A stretch of DNA of 64,000 bases, taken from positions 23,376,116 through 23,440,115 of the forward strand of contig NC_081363.1 in the NCBI RefSeq assembly GCF_030684315.1, in the 5' to 3' direction. The position numbers and the translations under genes are program-made. Source of the stretch: Stegostoma tigrinum. Its lineage: Eukaryota. Below the pieces are notes generated by a model. It ran no database searches, was not told the DNA's origin, and was given only the letters and a program-made list of their open reading frames with translations. Of the stretch, positions 9,006 through 60,394 are shown in pieces. Position 1 is the first letter of the stretch; each line of letters begins with the position of its first letter.

Positions 9006-9600
9006 ATGGATGACAGTAAAGGGGTTTTACATTCATGCATGAGGCATTGGAAGACATATTGGTGGAGTTGGAGGAAAGAGATTTCTTTTGTTGGCGATAA
9101 TACAGTGTGGACCTGGAGAAGCGCAAGAGGCCAGGCAGCACCAGAGGAGGAAGAAACTTGACGTTTCAAGTCGGGACCCTTCTCCAGAAATAGGAAGAGG
9201 GAAGGGAGCTGGGAAAAAATAGAGAGAGGAGGGGTGGGGCAGGGGAAGGTGTAGGTGGGATAGTGATAGTGATTGTTGGCGGTATGGCAGGGCAGAGTGA
9301 GATCAGGAAGCCATCAAGGATTACCCTCCACAGAGAATGGAGATGGGAGGCCAGGCCAACAATGCAAACAACCTGGCTCTGACAATATTTCAGTAATTCC
9401 ACAGGAAGATTGATTCCTTTTTACCATGAGTGGTCAAGGTCAGTGAATTCATTGCTGTTTGGCATTTTCTGTATCACTCAAACTCAGTGCAACAGAATCA
9501 CTTGCATTCTGCTGTTTCTTTTGTTGAATAAGGAAACACACAATCGATCAGGGCAGAGCCAATAGAGGACAAGGACACCCGCATTCTTTGACCATGCTCA
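9006..9600 (+). pseudogene. Fossil PIF/Harbinger Myb/SANT-like accessory gene (two exons), split by a Penelope-like insertion at about 9096-9299
   Basis: FMHEALEDILVELEERDFF (from 9032), then after the insertion IRKPSRITLHREW...NANNLA...RK...VVK|GTCAGT (donor 9439), then a KETHNR-like second exon; resembles the Harbinger Myb_DNA-bind_5 pattern; frameshifted. Confidence 0.55.
9096..9299 (-). mobile_element. Penelope-like element terminus (family C) with adjacent purine-rich flank
   Basis: Homologous to the arms at 12655, 29003 and 60272; minus strand CTGGAGA-A-GGGTCCCGACTT-GAAACGTC. Confidence 0.7.
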
Positions 9601-10239: not shown

Positions 10240-10329
10240 TCTAGACTGTAAAAACCGAAAGAACGGCATATGCTGTAAATCAGGTCAGGCAGGTCTGGCA
10301 GCATCTGTCAAGGAAAAAAACAAGTTAAC

Positions 10330-11325
10330 TGGGACCACTGTTGTTTGTGATATATGTAAATGATATGGAGGAAGGTGTAGGCGGTCTGATCAGCAAGTTT
10401 ACTGATGACACTAAGATTGGTGGAGTAGCTGATAGTGAAGGGGACTGTCAGAGATTACAGCAGAATATAGATCGACTGGAGAGTTGGGCAGATAAATGGC
10501 AGATGGAGCTCAATCCGGGCAAATGCGAGGTGATGCATTTTGGAAGATCAAATTCAAGGGCGAACTATACAGTAAATGGAAAAGTCCTAGGGAAAATTGA
10601 TGAACAGAGAGATCTGGGTGTTCAGGTCCATTGTTCCCTGAAGGTGACAACGCAGGTCAATAGGGTGGTCAAAAAGGCACATGGCGTGCTTTCCTTCATT
10701 GGATGGGGCATTGAGTACAAGAGTTGGCAGGTCATGTTGCAGTTGTATAGGACTTTGGTTTGGCCACATTTGGAGTACTGTGTACAGTTCTGGTCGCCAC
10801 ATTACCAAGAGGATGTGGATGCTTTGGAGAGGGTGCAGAGGAGGTTCGCCAGGATGTTGCCTGGTATGGAGGGTGCTAGCTATGAAGAAATGTTGAGTAG
10901 ATTAGGATTATTTTCATTAGGAAGACAGAGATTGAGGGGGGACCTGATTGAGGTCTACAAAATCATGAGGGGTATAGACAGAGTGGATAGCAAAAAGCTT
11001 TTTCCCAGAGTGGGGGACTCAATTACTAGGGGTCATGAGTTCAAAGTGAGAGGAGGAAGGTTTAAGGGAGATATGCGTGGAAAATTCTTTACACAGAGGG
11101 TGGTGGGCGCCTGGAACACGTTGCCAGCGGAGGTGGTAGACGCAGACACGTTAGCGTCTTTTGAGATATATTTGGACAGGTACATGAATGGGCAGGGAGC
11201 GAATGGACACAGGCCATTAGAAAATGGATGACAGGTTAGACAGAGGATCTTGATCGGCACAGGCTTGGGGGGGCCGAAGGGCCTGTTCCTGTGCCGTAGG
11301 TTTCTTTGTTCTTTGTTCTTTGTTT
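10330..11325 (+). mobile_element. Young 5'-truncated CR1 LINE with (GTTCTTT)n tail
   Basis: Uninterrupted ORF2 C-terminus plus 3' UTR ending TTTCTTTGTTCTTTGTTCTTTG. Confidence 0.95.
10341..11231 (+). pseudogene. CR1 ORF2 C-terminal 296 aa (part of RT domain and C-terminus), open but 5'-truncated
   Basis: FVIYVND...SKFTDDTK (FADD variant), YRTLVWPHLEYCVQFWSP, FFTQRVVGAWN; lacks endonuclease and N-terminal RT motifs. Confidence 0.9.
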
Positions 11326-11477
11326 CAGGTCAGAGAAAGATGCTGCGTGGCCTGCTGTGTTCATCCAGCTCCACACTCTGTTACAATGTTTCGGATCCAG
11401 TGTTTTTGCCTTGACAGATACTGCCAGACCTGCTGAGATTTTCCAGCAACTTTGTTCTTGTTTTTCTAGACTGTATC

Positions 11478-12466
11478 TGATGTTGGATCCATGGCTTTTT
11501 GTCATTTATGTGAATGATTTGCATGTGAATATCGAAGGTATGGTTACTAAGTTTGCAGATGACAACAAAATTAGTAGTGTCATGGATAGCAAAGAAGATT
11601 ACCTCAGAGTACAACAGGGCCTTGATCAGATGGGCCAATGGGCCAAGGAGTGGCAGATGGAGCTTAATTTAGATAAATGTGAGGTGCTGTACTTTGATGA
11701 GGCAAATCAGGGCATACCTTTAAACACTTAGTGGTAAGGACCTGGGGAGGATTGTCGACCAAAAGGATCTTGGAGTGCAGGTTCATAGTTCCTTGAAAGT
11801 GGAGTCACAGGTAGACAGGGTGATGAAGTATACGTTTGGTATTATTTCAATTAATGGTCAATGCATTGAGTATTGGAGTTGGGAGCTCATGTTGCTGCTG
11901 TACAGGACTTTGGTTAGACCACTTTTGGAATACTGCATTCAATTCCGGTCTCCCTGCTATTAGAAAAGTGTGAAATTTAAAAGGTTTCAGAAAAGATTTA
12001 CAAGGATGTTGCCAGGATTGGAGGTTTTGAGCTGTAGGGAGACACTGAGTAGGTTGGGGTTAATATTCCAAGAGCATGGGAGGCTGAGGGGTTGACATTA
12101 TAGAAGTTTATAAAATCATGAAGGGCATGACAGGCTGAATAGTCAAGGTCTTTTCTCCAGGATTGCAGAGTCCAAAACTAGACAGCATTGGTTTAAGGTG
12201 AGAGAAGAAAGGTTTAAAGGAAGTTAAGGGACACCTTGCTCATGCAGTGGGTGGTGCGAATCTGGAATGAGCTGCCAGAGGAGGTGATGGAGGATGGTAC
12301 AGTGACAACATTTAAGAGGCAACTGGATGGGTGGATGAATCGGAAGGGTTCAGAGGGATATTGACCAAATGCTGGCAAATGGAACTAGATTAATTTAGAC
12401 TATCTGGTAGGCATGGTCATGTTGAACCGAAAAGTGTGTTTCAGTGCTATACATTTCTATGACTCA
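11478..12466 (+). mobile_element. CR1 LINE 3' fragment
   Basis: LFVIYVND...TKFADDNK, LYRTLVRPLLEYCIQF; tail TTCTATGACTC. Confidence 0.9.
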
Positions 12467-12469
12467 AAG

Positions 12470-13495
12470 ATGCCATTCACACTATTCCAAATGTGGTCTG
12501 ACTGGTCCTTATATAGTTTAACCATGATTTCCCTATTTTTATACTCCATTTCCTCTGAAATAACGGTCAACATTTTATTGTCACCTCAAATACGTACTTT
12601 CCTTTTAATTCCTTTCTCGTAATTATGGTTCTCATGTCATGTATGTTAGTTTGTTGTAATACAGTGTAGAGTGAGAGGAACACAGCAGGCCAGGCAGCAT
12701 CAGAGGCACAGGGAAGTTGGTATTTCTGGTCAGGAACCTTTTTCAGAAATGAAGAAGGGTCCCAACACAAAATATCAACTTTCCTGCTCTTCTGATGCTG
12801 CCTGGTCTGCTGTGTTCCTCAAGCTCCACACTGTGTTATCTCTGTCTCCAGCACCTTCAGTTCTTACTACCACTGTTAGCTTGTCCTCATGCATTCACAA
12901 GAACTCCCGAATCCCTCAGTATATTTCAAATATCATTCTTCATTTATACAATATTCCACCATTCTATTCATTCTATCAGTGCCATAACCTCACATTTTGT
13001 CACATTACAGACCTTACACAAAATTTTTGCCGACTCTCATAACCATATATATTTGTCTGCAGACTCTTTGTGTCATCCTTACCACTTGACTGGCTACCTA
13101 TATTTGAATCACTCGCAAACTAGACAATGGTACATTCACTTGCCTCATTCAAGTTATTTGTATATGTCATAATTAAATGCATCCCCAGCACTGATTCCTG
13201 TGGCAGTCCATTCACTACAGGTGGCTATCCTGAATATGATGCCCTTATCCCAACTTTCTGACTTATATTAATTAAACAGCCTTCCATCCGTTCTGAATTA
13301 ATACCTCTACCACCATGGGGACTGATCTTATTAATTAGCCAACCAATACACCTTCCGATCAAAAGCCTTCTGAAAATCCACATATGTTATATTCACTGTT
13401 TCCCCCTTATCTATGCTGATCAATAATTCATCAAAGAATTCTAATAAATTTATCAGACACAATTTGTCCTTCATGAAATCACGCTAACAATGCAA
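12470..13495 (-). mobile_element. Old CR1 LINE RT fragment, interrupted by a palindromic element at 12655-12873
   Basis: Reverse-complement remnants CCCAGCACTGATTCCTG (PQGSVLG-like) and AAAGCCTTCTGAAAATCC (DFQKAF). Confidence 0.75.
12655..12873. mobile_element. Palindromic Penelope-like element (family C)
   Basis: Arms GAGGAACACAGCAGGCCAGGCAGCATCAGA / TCTGATGCTGCCTGGTCTGCTGTGTTCCTC meet at TTTCAGAAATGAAGAAGGGTC; probable 11-bp TSD TGTTAG(T/C)TTGT at 12644-12654 and 12874-12884. Confidence 0.8.
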
Positions 13496-24534: not shown

Positions 24535-24590
24535 AGCTTCACACTTTGTTATCTTGGATTCTCCAGCATCTGCAGTTCCCATTATCTCTG
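24535..24590 (+). mobile_element. About 50-bp tail-only family-A Penelope-like insertion
   Basis: ACACTTTGTTATCTTGGATTCTCCAGCATCTGCAGTTCCCATTATCTCTG, flanked by the direct repeat TCTCTGAAAAGCAGT at 24520-24534 and 24585-24599. Confidence 0.85.
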
Positions 24591-24726
24591 AAAAGCAGTG
24601 TTTGCTTATGTTACCAACCTAATAAACTCTGCAGCCGTAACAGTTTTTTTTACACAGAAGGACAGCATGCAGACCATTTGAATCTGTGATGTCTCTGCGA
24701 GACCAAACCAAAACCAAATCCAGTGC

Positions 24727-24927
24727 TAACAAAGTGTGGGGCTGGATGAACACAGCAGGCCGAGCAGCATTCTAGGAGCACAAAAGCTGACGTTTCGGGC
24801 CTAGACCCTTGGCCTGAATTGTCAGCTTTTGCTCTCCTAGGATGTTGCTTGGCCTGCTGTGTTCATCCAGCCCCACACTTTGTTATCTTGGATTCTCTAG
24901 CATCTGCAGTTCCCATTATCTCTGATC
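24727..24927. mobile_element. Palindromic Penelope-like element (family A)
   Basis: Inverted arms TAACAAAGTGTGGGGCTGGATGAACACAGCAGGCC / GGCCTGCTGTGTTCATCCAGCCCCACACTTTGTTA; minus strand GGG-TCTAGG-CCC-GAAACGTC; perfect 14-bp TSD CCAAATCCAGTGCT at 24714-24727 and 24928-24941. Confidence 0.9.
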
Positions 24928-26784: not shown

Positions 26785-28492
26785 TATTTCGTGTCAGTCT
26801 TCACAGCGGAAGACATGAATAACATGCTGAAAACTAACAGCAAGAAGGTTACAGCAGATGAGGACCTAGAAACTATTATTATCACTAAGGAGACAGTGCT
26901 GGGCAAGTTAATGGGGCTGAAGGTAGACAAGTCTCCTGGCCCTGATGAGATACATCCCAGGGTACTAAAAGAGGTGATGGCGGAAGTAGCAAATGCACTA
27001 GTAATTTTTTACCAAAATTCACTGGACTCTGGGGTGGGTCCCACAGATTGGAAAACAGCCAATGTGACACCACTGTTTAATAAAAGTAGAAAAAAACAAG
27101 TAACTATAGTCCAGTTAGCTTAACTTTGGTAGTGGGGAAAATGCTTGAATCTATCAGTAAGGAGGAAATTGCAAGACATCTGGATATAAATTGTCCCACT
27201 GGGAACACCCAGCATGGGTTCATGAAGGATAGGTCATGTTTAACTAATTTAGTGGAATTCTTTGTGGAAATTACTTGCATGGTGGACAATGGGAACCTGT
27301 GGACGTGGATTTCCAGAAGGCATTTGACAAGGTGCCACGCCAAAGGCTGCTACATAAAATAAAGTTCCATGGTATTACAGGCAATGCATTGGAACGGATA
27401 GAGGATTGGTTGACCAGTAGAAAGCAAAGTGTAGGGGTAAATGGGTGTTTTTCTGGTTGGCAGTCAGTGGCTAGTGGTGTGCCTCAGGGATCAGTGTTAG
27501 AGTTTCAATTGTTTACAATTTACATGGATGATTTGGAGTTGGGGTCTAAATGTGGTGTGTCAAAATTTGCAGATGACACTAAGGTGAGTGGTAGAGCAAA
27601 GTGTGTAGAAGACACTGAAAGTCTGCAGAGGGATATCGATAGTCTAAGTGAGTGGGTGAAGATCTGGCAGATGGAGTACAATGTTGATAAGTGTGATGTC
27701 ATCCAATTTAGTAAGAATAACAGCAAAATGGACTATATTTTAAATGGCTAAAAATTGCAGCTCTCTGCTATGCAGAGGGACTTGGGTGTCCTTGTGCATG
27801 AATTGCTGAAGGTAGGATTGCAGAGGCAGTAGATAATTCAAAAGGCAACTGTAATTTTGCCTGCCATTGCTAGAGGGATGGAGTTTAAAGACAGGGAGGC
27901 TAAGCTGCAGCTGTATAGGGTCCTGGTGAGGCCACACCTGGAGTACTGTGTGCAGTTTTGGTCTCCTTACTTGAGAAGAGATATATTAGTACTGGAGGGT
28001 GTGCGGAGGAGATTCACTCGGTTGATTCCAGAGCTGAGAGGGTTGGATTATGAGGAGAGACTGACCATACTGGGATTATAGTCATTGGAATTCAGAAGAA
28101 TGAGGGGAGATCTTATAGAAACATATAAGATTATGAAGGAAATAGATAAAGTGGAGGCAGGGAAGTTGTTTCCTCGCGCATGTGAAACTAGGACTAGAGG
28201 GCATAGCCTCAAAATAAAGGGAAGCAGATGTAGGACTGAGGTCAGGGGAGACTTCTCCCCCAAAGGGTTGTGAATCTGTGGAATTCCCTGCTCAGTGAAG
28301 CGGTTGAAGCTACCTCACTGAATGTTTTTAAGGCAAGGCTAGATAAATTTTTGAACAGTAAAGGAATTAAGGGTTATTCTGAGTGGGCAGATAAGTGGAG
28401 CTGAGTCTCAAAAAGATCAACCATGATGTTATTAAATGGCGGGGCAGGCTCCAGGGTCCAGATGGCCTATTCCTGCTCCTAGTTCTTATAAT
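26785..28492 (+). mobile_element. CR1 LINE, whole RT region to 3' end, frameshifted
   Basis: KSPGPDEIHPRVLKE, DWKTANVTPLF, QHGFMKDRSCLTNL, DFQKAFDKVP, GVPQGSVL, SKFADDTK, LYRVLVRPHLEYCVQFWSP; tail CCTGCTCCTAGTTCTTAT. Confidence 0.95.
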
Positions 28493-29002: not shown

Positions 29003-29120
29003 AGATATAATAGGAATTGTCGATGCTGGAGTCGGAGATAACACAATGTGGAGCTGGAGGAGCACAGCAGGTCAGGCAGCATCAGAGGAGCAGTAAGTTT
29101 ATGTTTCGGGTCAGGTCCTG
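29003..29120 (-). mobile_element. Single-arm family-C Penelope-like element
   Basis: GATGCTGGAGTCGGAGATAACACAATGTGGAGCTGGAGGAGCACAGCAGG...TTTCGGGTCAGG; stops within the helix II region. Confidence 0.8.
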
Positions 29121-29268: not shown

Positions 29269-31620
29269 ATAGAACATAGAACATAGAACATAGAACATAG
29301 AACATAGAACAGTACAGCACAGAACAGGCCCTCAGCCCACAATGTTGTGCCGACCATTGATCCTCATGTATGCACCCTCAAATTTCTGTGACCATATGCA
29401 TGTCCAGCAGTCTCTTAAATGACCCCAATGACCTTGCTTCCACAACTGCTGCTGGAAATGCATTCCATGCTCTCACAACTCTCTGTGAGAAGAACCCGCC
29501 TCTGACATCCCCTCTATACTTTCCTCCAACCAGCTTAAAACTATGACCCCTCGTGCTAGCCATTTCTGCCCTGGGAAATAGTCTCTGGCTATCAACTCTA
29601 TCTATGCCTCTCATTATATTGTATACCTCAATTAGGTCCCCTCTCCTCCTCCTTTTTTCCAATGAAAAGAGACCGAGCTCAGTCAACCTCTCTTCATAAG
29701 ATAAGCCCTCCAGTCCAGGCAGCATCCTGGTAAACCTCCTCTGAACCCTCTCCAAAGCATCCACACCTTTCCTATAATGGGGCGACCAGAACTGGACGCA
29801 GTACACCAAGTGCGGTCTAACCAAAGTTTTATAGAGCTGCAACAAGATCTCACAACTCTTAAACTCAATCCCCCTGTTAATGAAAGCCAAAACACCATAT
29901 GCTTTCTTAACAACCCTGTCCACTTGGGTGGCTATTTTGAGGGATCTATGTATCTGCACACCAAGATCCCTCTGTTCCTCCACCTGCCAAGAATCCTATC
30001 CTTAATCCTGTACTCAGCTTTCAAATTCGACCTTCCAAAATGCATCACCTCGCCTTTATCCAGGTTGAACTCCATCTGCCACCTCTCAGCCCATCTCTGC
30101 ATCCTGTCAATGTCCCACTGCAGCCTACAACAGCCCTCTCTACAGTCAACGACACCTCCGACCTTTGTGTCGTCTGCAAACTTGCTGACCCATCCTTCAA
30201 TCCCCTCATCCAAGTCATTAATAAAAATTACAAACAGTAGAGGCCCAAGGACAGAGTCCTGTGGAACCCCACTCACAACTGACTTCCAGGCAGAATATTT
30301 TCCTTCTACTACCACTCGCTGTCTTCTGTTGGCCAGCCAATTCTGTATCCAGGCAGCTAAGTTCCCCTGTATCCCATTCCTCCTGACCTTCTGAATGAGC
30401 CTACCATGGGGAACCTTATCAAATGCCTTACTGAAGTCCATATACACCACATCCACAGCTCGACCCTCATCAACTTTTCTAGTCACATCCTCAAAAAACT
30501 CGATAAGGTTTGTGAGGCATGACCTACCCCTCACAAAGCCATGTTGACTGTATTTGATCAAGCCATGCTCTTCCAGATGGTCATAAATCCTATCCCTCAG
30601 AATCCTTTCTAACACCTTGCAGACGACAGACGTGAGACTTACTGGTCTGTAATTGCTGGGGATTTCACTATTTCCTTTCTTGAAGTGAGGAATTACATTT
30701 GCCTCTCTCCAGTCCTCAGGTACGACTCCAGTGGAGAGCGAGGATGCAAAGATCTTTGCAAGTGGCGAAGCAATTGCTTTTCTCGCTTCCCAAAGCAGCT
30801 GAGGACAAATCTGGTCCGGGCCTGGCAACTTGTCAATCTTAACGTTTGACAAAATTTTCAGCACATCAGCTTCCTCTATCTCTATCCATTCCAGCATGCA
30901 CAACTGCTCTTCAAAGGTTTCATTCACTACAAAGTTCATTTCTTTCGTAAAGACAGAAGCAAAAACTCATTTAGGGCTTCCCCTACCTCCTCAGACTCCA
31001 CACACAAGTTCCCTATGCTATCCCTGATCGGCCCTACTCTTTCTTTGACCATTCTCTTATTCAAAAATGCCTTTGTGTTCTCCCTGATTCGTTCTGCCAA
31101 GCCTTTCTCGTGCCCCCTCCTGGCTCTCCTCAGACCATTTTTGAGCTCCTTCCTTGCCTGCGTGTAATCCTCTCTAGCTAAATTTGACCCAAGCTTCCTC
31201 CACCTTATGTAAGCTACCTTCTTCCTTTTCACAAGAAGCTCCACCGCTCTTGTCATCCAAGGTTCCTTTATCTTACCCCTTCTTGCCTGTCTCAGGGAGA
31301 CAAATTTACTCATCACTCGCAACAACTGTTCTTAAACAGTCTCCACATGTCTATAGTTCCCTTACCATGGAACAATTGCTCCCAGTCCATGCTTCCTAAC
31401 TCATGTCTAATCGCGTCATAGTTTCCTCTTCCCCAATTAAATATCCTCCCATTTTCCCTAATCCTCTCCTTCTCCATAGCTATGTAGAATGTGAGGCAGT
31501 TATGGTCACTATCACCAAAATGCTCTCCCACCACAAGATCTGATACCTGCCCCGGCTCGTTTCCGAGCACCAAGTCTAGAATGGCCTCTCCCCTCGTCGG
31601 CCTGTCAACGTACTGCGTCA
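29269..31620 (-). mobile_element. Young 2.35-kb CR1 LINE: end of APE endonuclease, full RT and 3' UTR, (GTTCTAT)n tail
   Basis: ORFs 31313-31660 (TQYVDRPTRGEAILDLVL...GDSDH), 30936-31325, 29932-30939 (DFSKAFDKVPH, GVPQDSVLGP, KFADDTK) and 29378-29983, joined by frameshifts; ATAGAAC repeats at 29269-29310. Confidence 0.97.
29932..30939 (-). pseudogene. CR1 ORF2 reverse-transcriptase core (335-aa open segment)
   Basis: RT motifs NYRPVSLTS, QHGF, DFSKAFD, GVPQDSVLGP, FADD; frameshifted at both ends. Confidence 0.92.
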
Positions 31621-47221: not shown

Positions 47222-47351
47222 TCATCAGAAGGGTCTAGGCCCGAAACGTCAGCTTTTGAGCTCCTGAGATGCTGCTTGGCCTGCTGTGTTCATCCAGATA
47301 CACGCTTTGTTATCTTGGATTCTCCAGCATCTGCAGTTCCCATTATCTCTG
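47222..47351 (+). mobile_element. Family-A Penelope-like element with a micro-remnant of the inverted arm
   Basis: TCATCAGA (reverse complement of TCTGATGA) fused to AGGG-TCTAGG-CCC-GAAACGTC-AGC and the full tail ...CCCATTATCTCTG. Confidence 0.88.
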
Positions 47352-47618
47352 GTTAATAAATTGAGTTTGGTAAGATACAGTGAGAAAATTTATGTAGGTG
47401 CATGGCATGAAGACTCCAAAAACCTCAACACAACTGTCACTTAGCCAAAATTCATAAGGTGCAACCAAATAGTCACAAGTTCAGCTCAGAGTCCTATAGA
47501 ATCGCAAGGTGACAAATAGGCTGATGTTCATTCTAAATGGTGGCTAGGATAAGTGGATCTCAGTGTTGGAAGATCAACCTTGATTCAGTCTTTAACGAAC
47601 TAATGACAGATAGACTTT

Positions 47619-47775
47619 TAAAAGCAAAATGCTATAGATGCTGAAAATTTAGTCCATCTTATTTTTGGCAGAACAGTTCTGAAGAAGTCATATTGGACTT
47701 GAAACATTAACTCTGTTTCTCTTTTCACAGATGCTGCCAGAGACTGCTGAGTTTCTCTGGCATTCTCTGTGTTTG
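47619..47775 (+). mobile_element. Family-B Penelope-like element with a near-intact hammerhead core
   Basis: AGTT-CTGAAGA(47679-47685)-AGTC-ATATTG-GACT-T-GAAAC-ATT-AACT; short inverted-arm remnant at 47619-47650. Confidence 0.75.
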
Positions 47776-47954
47776 TAACAGATACTCGAAATGGTCCGAG
47801 AGATAAATTTGGGTTTACTTGAACAGATATATATGAATATTCAACTGGCTGTTGCTATCAGAGACGTTTTTCTAAAACAATTTAATATCCCTGTTTGCAC
47901 AAAGTCAGATATCCTGATCATTTCCTACCAAAATGACATAATTTTCAGTTCAGA

Positions 47955-48128
47955 GCTGTGCAGGTTAGGTGGATTGGCATGTTAAATTGTCCATCACAGC
48001 CAGGATGTGCAGACTAAGTGGATTAGCCACAGGAAAGGAAGGGTTACAGGGTTAGGGTAGTGGGGTGAGTCAGTGTGGAATGGATGGGCCGAATGGCCTG
48101 CTTCCACACTGTAGGGATTCTATGATTT
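47955..48128 (+). mobile_element. 5'-truncated HE1 V-SINE
   Basis: GTGCAGGTTAGGTGGATTGGCATG...GGGCCGAATGGCCTGCTTCCACACTGTAGGGATTCTATGA. Confidence 0.85.
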
Positions 48129-48209
48129 TATATTCCTACTATTCTAAGGTCATAGATAACGCAGATTGAAATAACAATTGCTTGAGTATGAACAACTAAC
48201 TAAGAAAAT

Positions 48210-48418
48210 CAGAGATAGTGGGAACTGCAGATGCTGGAGAATCCGAGATAACAAAGTGTGGAGCTGGATGAACACAGCAGGCCAAGCAGCATCTTAAGAG
48301 CACGAAAGCTGACATTTCGGGCCTAGACCCTTCATGATGAAGGGTCTAGGCCCGAAACGTCAGCTTTTGTGCTCCTAAGTTGCTGCTTGGCCTGCTGTGT
48401 TCATCCAGCTCCACACTT
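48210..48418. mobile_element. Palindromic Penelope-like element (family A), best preserved
   Basis: Arms of about 80 bp centred on CCCTTCATGATGAAGGG; plus strand ATGATGA-A-GGG-TCTAGG-CCC-GAAACGTC (48334-48361); 11-bp TSD TAAGAAAATCA at 48201-48211 and 48422-48432. Confidence 0.92.
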
Positions 48419-49810
48419 GATTAAGAAAATCATACGGTTTGTTGACCCAATTTCACTCACTGCCCTACATTCCACATTATTTTTTATTTGTAGGCCTTCA
48501 ATGATTTATTACACAATCACCCTGTTTATTTTGGCGCAAAATGGCAAGGCTGATCTCTCAAAAGCATAAAATCAATTAGTATTCATTGTTTGCCGAATCT
48601 TTCAACTCTCTCCCTCAGTTTGGTTTTTCAGCCTGTTCAAGGATTCTTAGATAACTCTGGCAATTTGACAGGCATAACATAGCATCAATATAAACAACGT
48701 TCTCTCTTTAAAATAAAAGCTGCTCGATGAATCATAATTCAATCTGCAAGATGGTGTGGAAGAGATACAAGGCCTCATAGTCAGAGAAAACAAATTCTCA
48801 GGAGTGAGCTACTCACACAGCACATAATCAAGTGCTGGCTGTGAATAGTTTATTACTTCATGTCTGTCTGCCTAACATCAGTGGGATGAAAAGTCTTACC
48901 CCACACTGTGAGATTATGAGAGTTATTCCACATATGTAGCAGTGCACAGCACTGAAACCTGATAGCTTACCGACAACTGCTTGTGAGGCTGACTCCCAAA
49001 TGTGAGATATGCTTTGTATTGTGTTTGTGTGGCAGTATGTCAGACCTTCAGGTTACTTTTGTTCACAATGCGCCCAATAAGCACTTAATGTGTGCAATGT
49101 TATCTGTGGTTTCATTGAACCACACTGCCACGAAGTAGACAGCGGTGCAGCTTGTTTCCCCTTCCCTTGCAACTATTCTGTCTCGCTGAACAGATTCGTC
49201 CTTTTAGAACTTTGCAAACAAGGCGACCAAAAGAGGACACACTAACTGGAAAAACTCAAAGCAGGAAATTGTGGGATTTATCAAATAGAAGTTGAGTTTC
49301 AAGAAATAGCAGATTATCAAAGAAAATATCCACCGGGCACATCTGGGCTTCTTTTTTAATTAGAACCTAATCACCAGAAAATGTTGTTGCTAGCACATTG
49401 AGAGACTGGATATAGGTCTGACAGTTGGCATACATTCCGTTCATGAATTGTAAGTAGTAACAGGAGTTACTTCACTTGACAAATGGGTACAGCTGTTACT
49501 TTACAACCTTGGAATTTATTTTTTTTATGTAGATGGCTGTCCAGGAGTTGAAAAATTTGGTTGCACATTAATTAAAATACAGATGTTAAGTCTAGACAGT
49601 TTTTAAACAGTAAAGACCAAACAACACACATTAAACAAAACTTAATATTTGTTTTACACTCAAGAAAAGATCAGCTGTCAGAGTCGAATGGAATATTTCT
49701 GTTCTGAGGATGGGTAATTCTGGCAGTTGGCACGTTTGGCTAAGAGTAACTGTTTCTTGCCAGCCACATTCCAAGATGAAGATACTGAAGCGGCAACATG
49801 GGGGAGGCGA

Positions 49811-52089: not shown

Positions 52090-52308
52090 GAAAGCTCAGC
52101 AGGTCTGGCAGCATCTGTGAAGAAAAAAATCAGAGTTAATGTTTCAGATCTGGTGACCATTCCTCAGAACTTTCCCAGTTCAGAGGAAAGGTCACTAGAC
52201 CTGAAATGTTTACTCTGATTTTTTTCTTTACAGATGCTGCCAGATCTGCTGAGCTTTTCCAGCAACTCCTGTTTTGATTTACAGTATGTGCAGTTCTCTT
52301 AGTTTTTA
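52090..52308. mobile_element. Palindromic Penelope-like element (family B) with two back-to-back hammerhead motifs
   Basis: Minus 52167-52137: CTGAGGA-AT-GGTC-ACCA-GATC-T-GAAACATT; plus 52181-52210: CAGAGGA-A-AGGTC-ACTA-GACCT-GAAATGTT; CAACCAGG at 52078-52085 and 52317-52324 (possible TSD). Confidence 0.88.
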
Positions 52309-60271: not shown

Positions 60272-60394
60272 GGAGATAGCAAGAACCTCAGATGCTGGAG
60301 TCAGAGACAACACAGTGTGGAGCTGGAGGAACACAGCAGGTCACGCAGCATCAGGGGAGCAGAAAAGTTGACGTTTCAGATCAGGACTCTTCTT
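60272..60394 (-). mobile_element. Single-arm family-C Penelope-like element
   Basis: CAGATGCTGGAGTCAGAGACAACACAGTGTGGAGCTGGAGGAACACAGCAGG...; minus strand AAGAAGAGTCCTGATCTGAAACGTC. Confidence 0.82.

Follow-up and report, generated by a model that had tools for sequence, protein, structure and literature searches.

Inverted 5'-truncated copies, a tail at one end and a target site duplication (TSD) are already known traits of Penelope-like elements (PLEs), as stated in the accessible parts of PMC8557442 and PMC3846280. The former attributes the tandem and inverted structures of PLEs to steps which are still undefined. Pen2a_Av from Adineta vaga (PMC3846280; scheme in Fig. 2 of PMC8557442) exhibits the same arrangement as the copy from the shark Stegostoma tigrinum described here: a truncated inverted copy in head-to-head orientation, a tail of 30-40 bp at one end, a single TSD around the unit and a hammerhead in the repeat. 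In contrast to Pen2a_Av, the shark copies consist of only two repeat ends without a frame between them and are present in tens of thousands of copies. Their TSDs are about 15 bp long compared to 8-10 bp in Pen2a_Av, and the one-tail pattern, which is optional there, is nearly strict here. The arm lengths in the shark furthermore oppose the self-priming that was proposed for Pen2a_Av.

For Poseidon_Ac from Anolis carolinensis in vitro data are available (PMC11167929). According to the accessible part of that paper both DNA strands are nicked and extended, and two start sites of reverse transcription downstream of the hammerhead bracket the tail; two corresponding sites are indicated for the shark copies. 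Poseidon_Ac is predicted to form a dimer, and ribozyme cleavage is not required. The start sites do not differ between the top and the bottom strand and the start site has no homology to the cut DNA, while a strict one-tail rule does not appear in this part of the paper. The partner element of the shark copies differs from Poseidon_Ac by a cysteine linker of the Neptune/Nematis type. The genomic copies also differ: each target strand appears to use its own start site, and a small number of ends accumulate where the ribozyme cuts.

In twin priming of L1 elements a nick in the second strand primes a second cDNA, which leads to an inversion inside one TSD; this probably holds for the shark copies as well. 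The arms of L1 inversions, however, derive from separate stretches of the RNA that do not overlap, with starts at variable sites, whereas both arms of the shark copies represent one stretch, copied from two fixed start regions. The non-LTR retrozymes (bioRxiv 10.64898/2026.07.22.740005, accessible part) are likewise short, non-coding, hammerhead-bearing and derived from PLE repeats. They are head-to-tail tandems with a whole ribozyme in each unit, whereas the shark copies are head-to-head, carry broken ribozymes and give no sign of mobility as a unit. Neither the head-to-tail units nor the complete type I hammerheads that define a non-LTR retrozyme are found in the focal copy.

A literature search by title and opening of the abstract, for which subscription papers, Repbase reports and supplements mostly lay outside, returned no description from sharks and no twin priming of PLEs. 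The focal locus is an ordinary one and its layout was already known. Added here are the empty site, a counted one-tail rule, a test of the fold-back explanation and an excess of ends at the cut site. The one-tail rule, the independent lengths of the arms and the two piles of 5' ends make the undefined steps of PLE insertion testable, including cutting by minimal hammerheads in vivo.

Structure of the focal palindrome

The window is the whole stretch of 64,000 nt from contig NC_081363.1 that was analysed. It contains an insertion of about 210 bases with two arms of 87 nt each (48249-48335 and 48337-48423), which are 93% complementary (6 mismatches in 87) and separated by a spacer of 1 nt. The centre reads CTTCATGATGAAG. 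Sequence comparison shows that each arm corresponds to the hammerhead-plus-tail unit found in a full-length element encoding reverse transcriptase (RT) and a GIY-YIG endonuclease. In the focal palindrome this end of the Neptune-type PLE, hammerhead plus tail, is present twice, each time truncated on the 5' side, with the two copies head to head. In the following, positions are numbered from C3 of the family's CUGAUGA box, which is 0; on this scale the ribozyme cleaves between +27 and +28.

The tailed arm (48212-48335, minus strand) is a sense copy of the unit, the 5' end of which lies at +3 from C3; it is without the CUG and has therefore no complete ribozyme. Its outer part is the PLE tail of about 35 nt (48212-48246, minus strand), which is missing from the right arm and in full-length copies is located directly 5' of the long open frame. 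The tail-less arm (48335-48421, plus strand) is a sense copy from +1 to about +83/+88 and stops in the internal start region. Both arms are 5'-truncated and meet head to head at 48334-48337, where T48335 is compatible with both of them and A48334 stands in place of C3. The initial annotation of the locus had described near-perfect inverted arms of about 80 bp with a tail on one arm and a shorter second arm, and this description was confirmed.

A remnant of a minimal type I hammerhead is found on the plus strand at 48335-48361. It comprises UGAUGA, an extra A, helix II (GGGU/GCCC), GAAA, a palindromic CG and UC, with the predicted cut between 48361 and 48362; it has neither C3 nor the 5' strand of helix I. 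The assignment is based on the sequence, on the presence of helix II in the predicted RNA fold and on the agreement with the minimal type I hammerheads in the accessible part of PMC4209133, which have the same extra base between 9 and 10.1, the G10.1-C11.1 pair and the loopless palindromic 15.2-16.2. The same source reports motif pairs on opposite strands 100-700 bp apart in metazoan PLEs. The family unit, as represented by the full-length locus L127, displays all minimal traits (CUGANGA, the extra base, a helix II closed by G-C, GAAA, palindromic 15.2-16.2 and UH). Its helix I has 2 bp, as reported for D. virilis, whereas the focal copy has lost helix I as well as C3: the plus-strand arm begins at U4 and the minus-strand arm at A6. 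The ribozyme of the focal copy is broken by the junction, and neither arm contains a whole ribozyme. The earlier statement that the core differs from the canonical one at C3 only is correct for the core boxes, and the change does lie at the fusion point. The A, however, did not arise by substitution but is the junction base of the left arm, and helix I has lost its 5' strand too. Among the 98 arms of 49 sampled palindromes, 48 have retained the core together with helix I. An Rfam scan of the window gave no match to a hammerhead model and only four weak matches.

The RNA of the plus strand is predicted to fold into one long hairpin of -164 kcal/mol (z -23), and none of 200 shuffled sequences folded as well. 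In the predicted fold the ribozyme core is paired with the antisense arm. To that extent the suggestion that the ribozyme is sequestered by its own antisense is supported; for the focal copy it is moot, as neither arm holds a whole ribozyme.

Target site duplication and empty site

The insertion is flanked by an exact direct repeat of 11 bp, TAAGAAAATCA, at 48201-48211 and 48422-48432, as had been annotated before. The two copies are 221 nt apart, and the probability of finding an 11-mer within 10 nt of both ends by chance is about 2e-4. The real duplication is probably 15 bp long with two transitions (48197-48211 and 48418-48432), because the family median is 15 and the contigs of the empty site join at 48196/48418. 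The final 4 nt of the left TSD equal the element sequence just past the tail, which continues with TGATAC in full-length copies and indicates microhomology at the priming site.

Among the sequencing runs found, those of one organism (A) share 0.9 of the query words and are perhaps from the source sample, and those of a related species (organism B) share 0.08-0.15. With 47600-49100 as query, single contigs from two runs (X5, X8) match 48104-48196 and resume without a gap at 48418, so that exactly 221 nt are skipped; from a further run (X13) no contig spanning the focal site was obtained. With 48128-48226 as query, contigs from X5, X8 and X10, which belong to two studies, pass 48211 and then agree with the right flank in 26 of 30 letters; run X1 yielded no contig for this query. 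The empty site thus carries a single TAAGAAAATCA, as anticipated in the initial annotation. The presence of an empty site with one repeat copy in organism B means that the palindrome is a true insertion with a TSD, which postdates the split from organism B. A retro-insertion with a long TSD, made by target-primed reverse transcription, had been proposed and is supported as well. The palindrome was also called young. It is indeed absent from organism B, the flanks being about 95% identical, but its arms are 6.9% apart, compared to a mean of 2.3% in 50 other palindromes, a sample which required perfect 16-mers and leans young.

The full-length partner element

The family marker TTTCGGGCCTAGACCC gave 162,457 matches in the 3.2-Gb genome. 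Many of the first 30 matches extend into a common upstream sequence, which holds RT and GIY-YIG frames. For a view of the whole element 20 loci were chosen for their long open frames, and in these frame-selected loci the order is unit, frame, 3' region, unit. The frame of L127 encodes 1,101 amino acids and is located between two copies of the hammerhead-plus-tail unit. Pfam matches to RVT_1 (residues 583-727, E 1.9e-5) and to GIY-YIG (residues 961-1000, E 0.004) are both under Pfam's cut-off. The translation comprises DKG, CxxC between the GIY-YIG half-motifs, and CCHH in the endonuclease. The combination that characterizes PLEs with an endonuclease, a single frame with RT as well as a C-terminal GIY-YIG domain with CCHH, is thus found in L127. 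Partial tandems with a hammerhead, the so-called pseudo-LTRs, are represented by the units on both sides of the frame in L126, L127 and L128, and the focal copy displays the insertion traits of PLEs, namely a 30-40 bp tail at one end, an inverted 5'-truncated copy and a TSD.

The linker between RT and endonuclease in L127 reads C-NRRK-C-YT-C (C-x4-C-x2-C). According to the accessible part of PMC8557442 a CX2-5CxxC linker is common to the Neptune and Nematis clades. By this sequence feature the partner appears to be a PLE of the Neptune/Nematis type, and the term Neptune-type as used here refers to the linker motif only.

In the 5' unit of L126 and L127 the AUG within CUGAUGA opens just 13 codons. 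The long frame of both loci follows a stop located where the tail ends and has its first methionine at residue 13; an intron or an alternative start is possible. The frame contains a variable repeat of the TADGTPP type as well as a Pro/Ser-rich end. Two short frame fragments gave no domain match in Pfam.

Palindromes in the genome

Head-to-head centres in which both 16-mers are perfect were found 9,142 times at a distance of up to 30 nt and 645 times at 31-60 nt, which is 14 times rarer. With outer anchors of one subfamily 2,966, 6,193 and 16,077 palindromes were counted for gaps of 0-30, 31-61 and 62-92 nt, respectively. The short palindromes of this one subfamily amount to about 25,000, and the focal geometry with a gap of 71 falls into the largest class.

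For closer inspection the first 50 centres on contig C1 were picked without regard to tails. The centres vary between copies, and the exact focal centre is present in none of the 50. In the whole genome it occurs 47 times, on differing subfamily backgrounds and with differing right ends (15 loci), which indicates that this centre recurs and did not spread as a unit. TSDs of 8-18 nt (median 15) are found in 46 of the 50 sampled palindromes and in 4 of 388 shuffled flank pairs, with one mismatch and shared bases permitted in the scoring.

One tail per insertion

Exactly one arm is tailed in 49 of the 50 sampled palindromes; the remaining one has no tail and none has two (p 9e-14 against 50:50). 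All 15 palindromes centred near the cut site also have exactly one tail, as do 25 of 27 bystander pairs (one of the others has two tails and one has none) and the 18 long inverted copies. Exceptions among 92 short pairs are one tail/tail and two tail-less/tail-less combinations, and one two-tailed copy (L002/L014) was found in a query-biased set. The 3' ends fall into two narrow regions: those of the tailed arms lie at +125 to +134 (46 of 49) and those of the tail-less arms at +87 to +97 (43 of 49). The simplest link of this pattern to Poseidon_Ac, and one that fits, would be a division of the two start sites between the target strands, with priming at one site per strand.

The two arms of a palindrome agree at four diagnostic sites in 44 of 46, 40 of 46, 40 of 45 and 39 of 42 cases, respectively, where 0.64-0.77 is expected. 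Such an agreement is equally expected from a fold-back, from a single active subfamily at a time or from later homogenisation.

5' ends and the ribozyme cut site

All 98 sampled arms end between -6 and +8, most of them at -4 to -1, although the boundary at -6 is partly built in by the 30-nt limit for the centre in the search pattern. Among 173 bystander arms, which include short matches of older subfamilies with unreliable ends, 31 end at -8 to -1, four at -40 to -9, six at -139 to -41 and 40 beyond -140. Single-arm copies also end at the same boundary just 5' of CUGAUGA. Of the full-length copies, L130 and L143 have a 5' unit starting at +17 and +4, respectively, with a template switch at -4 in L143, while L126 to L128 run past the -6 boundary into upstream sequence. 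According to PMC6765202 the transcript begins in the upstream repeat. The sharp upstream edge with a trimmed shoulder fits a run-off at an RNA 5' end that we infer to lie 4-6 nt upstream of CUGAUGA. Tabulation of the axes shows that they cluster at the CUGAUGA box in the whole family, as the focal copy had suggested; they are not, however, fixed on it, but span -6 to +8 around C3 and form a second cluster at the cut site.

This second cluster is seen in two counts. Perfect palindromes centred on AGCT starting at +28 occur 727 times, compared to 47 centred on ACGT 5 nt upstream, a control count which allows for CpG decay, and 23 centred on GGCC downstream. When palindromic joins are excluded, 371 ends at +28 stand against 125 at +24, an excess of about 3-fold, with a pattern for +28 that is more restrictive than that for +24 and with about 12 of 100 matches listed being one-base deletions. 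In the accessible part of PMC11167929 no reads were found at the cut site and uncleaved RNA is the main template. The pile in the shark genome suggests, at a chance which we put slightly above even and as far as it can be read from genomic ends, that some templates were cleaved by the ribozyme in vivo.

Head-to-tail units of about 100 nt that reach from the cut site, or one base before it, to the end of the tail were seen at G000:C1:144587914-144588065 and in L088 (8741-8900). The two tandem units on C1 span exactly +28 to the tail, and the one in L088 starts at +27. They look as if the RT had run to a cut 5' end and then primed anew at the tail. An untemplated cap G at the 5' ends of the arms is unreadable from the junctions, since a G/C at these places is provided by the flanking template as well as by the partner arm.

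Mechanism of insertion

The focal locus is in our opinion likely to be a one-off, dead-end insertion for which the PLE enzyme made a nick in each target strand, at a distance of about 15 bp from one another, with one cDNA primed per nick. One nick would prime at the tail end (about +125 to +134 from C3) and the second one about 36 nt further upstream, at the internal site (+87 to +97); in vitro, these two sites delimit the tail of Poseidon_Ac. Both cDNAs would be extended to the 5' end of the RNA, placed 4-6 nt upstream of CUGAUGA. Their ends would then be trimmed and joined bluntly or by a microhomology of 1-2 nt, which would bring the axis on or near the ribozyme box. Less firmly, a single RNA molecule may have been the template for both cDNAs, and a minority of templates may have been cut by the ribozyme beforehand, which would account for the palindromes of the second class, with their centre at the cut site.

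The palindrome had previously been explained by the fold-back of one cDNA. In a fold-back or self-priming process a single cDNA, or else an antisense RNA, would bend back on itself at the ribozyme and serve as its own template, and the copy would end before the tail. One tail per insertion and matching arms are predicted and both are observed, some centres are perfect palindromes, and self-priming was proposed for the junction palindromes in the accessible part of PMC3846280. A copy of the tailed cDNA, however, cannot contain sequence past the end of its template, yet in 49 short palindromes the tail-less arm reaches further 5' in 25 cases (the tailed arm in 19, with 5 equal) and is ahead by at least 4 nt in 12. 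The tail-less arm is also the longer one in 13 of 18 long inverted copies (with a lead of 95 nt to kilobases), compared to four with a longer tailed arm and one with equal arms; 14 of these copies come from frame-selected loci and four from 49 evenly spaced 10-kb stretches, and with the loci mostly selected the bias of 13 in 17 has a p of 0.05. In L130 the arms measure 3.4 kb (tail-less) and 125 nt. Most junctions (31 of 49) are blunt or share 1-2 nt and have no loop. Since the arms are of independent length and the tail-less one is often longer, two separate cDNAs are indicated. The focal copy alone, in which the tail-less arm leads by 2 nt only, cannot discriminate between the two. As a general route fold-back is largely refuted; it is improbable for the focal locus, and its scope would be limited to perfect palindromic centres, or to cases in which resection of the tailed arm followed the copying. 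There is next to no probability that the palindromes are a MITE or another non-autonomous element which moves as a single palindromic unit. Short near-perfect inverted arms, a very high copy number and the recurrence of the exact focal centre would be in line with it, but Tc1/mariner-type MITEs have symmetric terminal inverted repeats, a fixed TA and a uniform interior. Here the arms are unequal in 49 of 50 copies, the TSDs are about 15 bp long and differ from TA, the centres differ from copy to copy, the focal one sits on different subfamily backgrounds, and the arms run on into the frame of a retroelement. The earlier judgement against a MITE therefore stands.

A variant of twin priming, in which two RNAs are used in an asymmetric dimer and/or the ends are set by a stall at the protein-bound ribozyme and not by the RNA 5' end or by cleavage, is unlikely. 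The arms of L130 may derive from different units of RNA, about 13 of 50 pairs among the matches listed were mixed by eye (with the end of one arm close to the cut site and that of its partner at the box), ends at +24 to +27 do exist, and the tandem unit in L088 begins one base before the cut site. A stall, however, is expected 3' of the structure, whereas the main pile is located just 5' of the whole ribozyme and has a sharp upstream edge, and two free RNAs alone would not yield 49 discordant pairs out of 50. It was also proposed that read-through RNA is a substrate of Dicer or ADAR. An 87-bp duplex feeding these enzymes and silencing the family seems very improbable to us. The predicted duplex is long and stable, and with tens of thousands of palindromes some should be part of transcripts. 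On the other hand the site is empty in organism B and the arms have drifted, and a Pfam scan of 40 of the window's 75 longest frames, which is a weak test for exons, found no host-gene domain and only four RT fragments. The empty site and the arm drift of 6.9% give no sign of selection. The hairpin is best explained as a by-product of insertion, and any function of it would be putative.

For the preferred priming from two nicks a more specific version can be given, which we hold tentatively and at somewhat less than an even chance. One dimer on one RNA would use both start sites simultaneously, one per strand, so that each inverted insertion would receive a single tail, and the junctions would mark the RNA 5' end 4-6 nt before the ribozyme. 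The pile at GUC/AGCU would go back to hammerhead cleavage in the germ line, with integration of the cut RNA. If this is true, the shark stubs are a fossil record of Penelope integration; cleavage together with integration of cut RNA has so far been seen neither in reads nor in vitro.

Further copies in the window

Two further palindromes, which belong to the same subfamily or to an older one, are located at 12657-12869 and 24717-24922 and have one tail each. Two of the four weak Rfam matches fall on the first of them (12659-12835); they point to the plant microRNA MIR2118, lie below the gathering score and are spurious. Stubs of this kind can be mis-filed as MITEs or, as this match illustrates, as microRNA hairpins. 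Upstream of the palindrome at 24717, at a distance of 130 bp, lies a tail-side fragment of 54 nt (24535-24588, minus strand). The unit is present as a single arm at 47222-47349, 29004-29110, 60273-60377, 9096-9234 and 11337-11383. The arm at 47222-47349, which is 860 bp away from the focal copy, carries a tail and, at the 5' end, a few bases in inverted orientation (TCATCA). The RVT_1 fragments recognized by Pfam at 10329-11728, 27248-27748 and 29935-30966 are likely LINE remnants. In L082 (4394-4750) a 50-nt segment of the central arm region forms a tandem array.

A palindrome of a different sequence family is present at 52091-52257. It has arms of 81 nt with 89% complementarity and a hammerhead-like CUGAGGA...GAAA near its centre, and is probably the same architecture in another PLE family.
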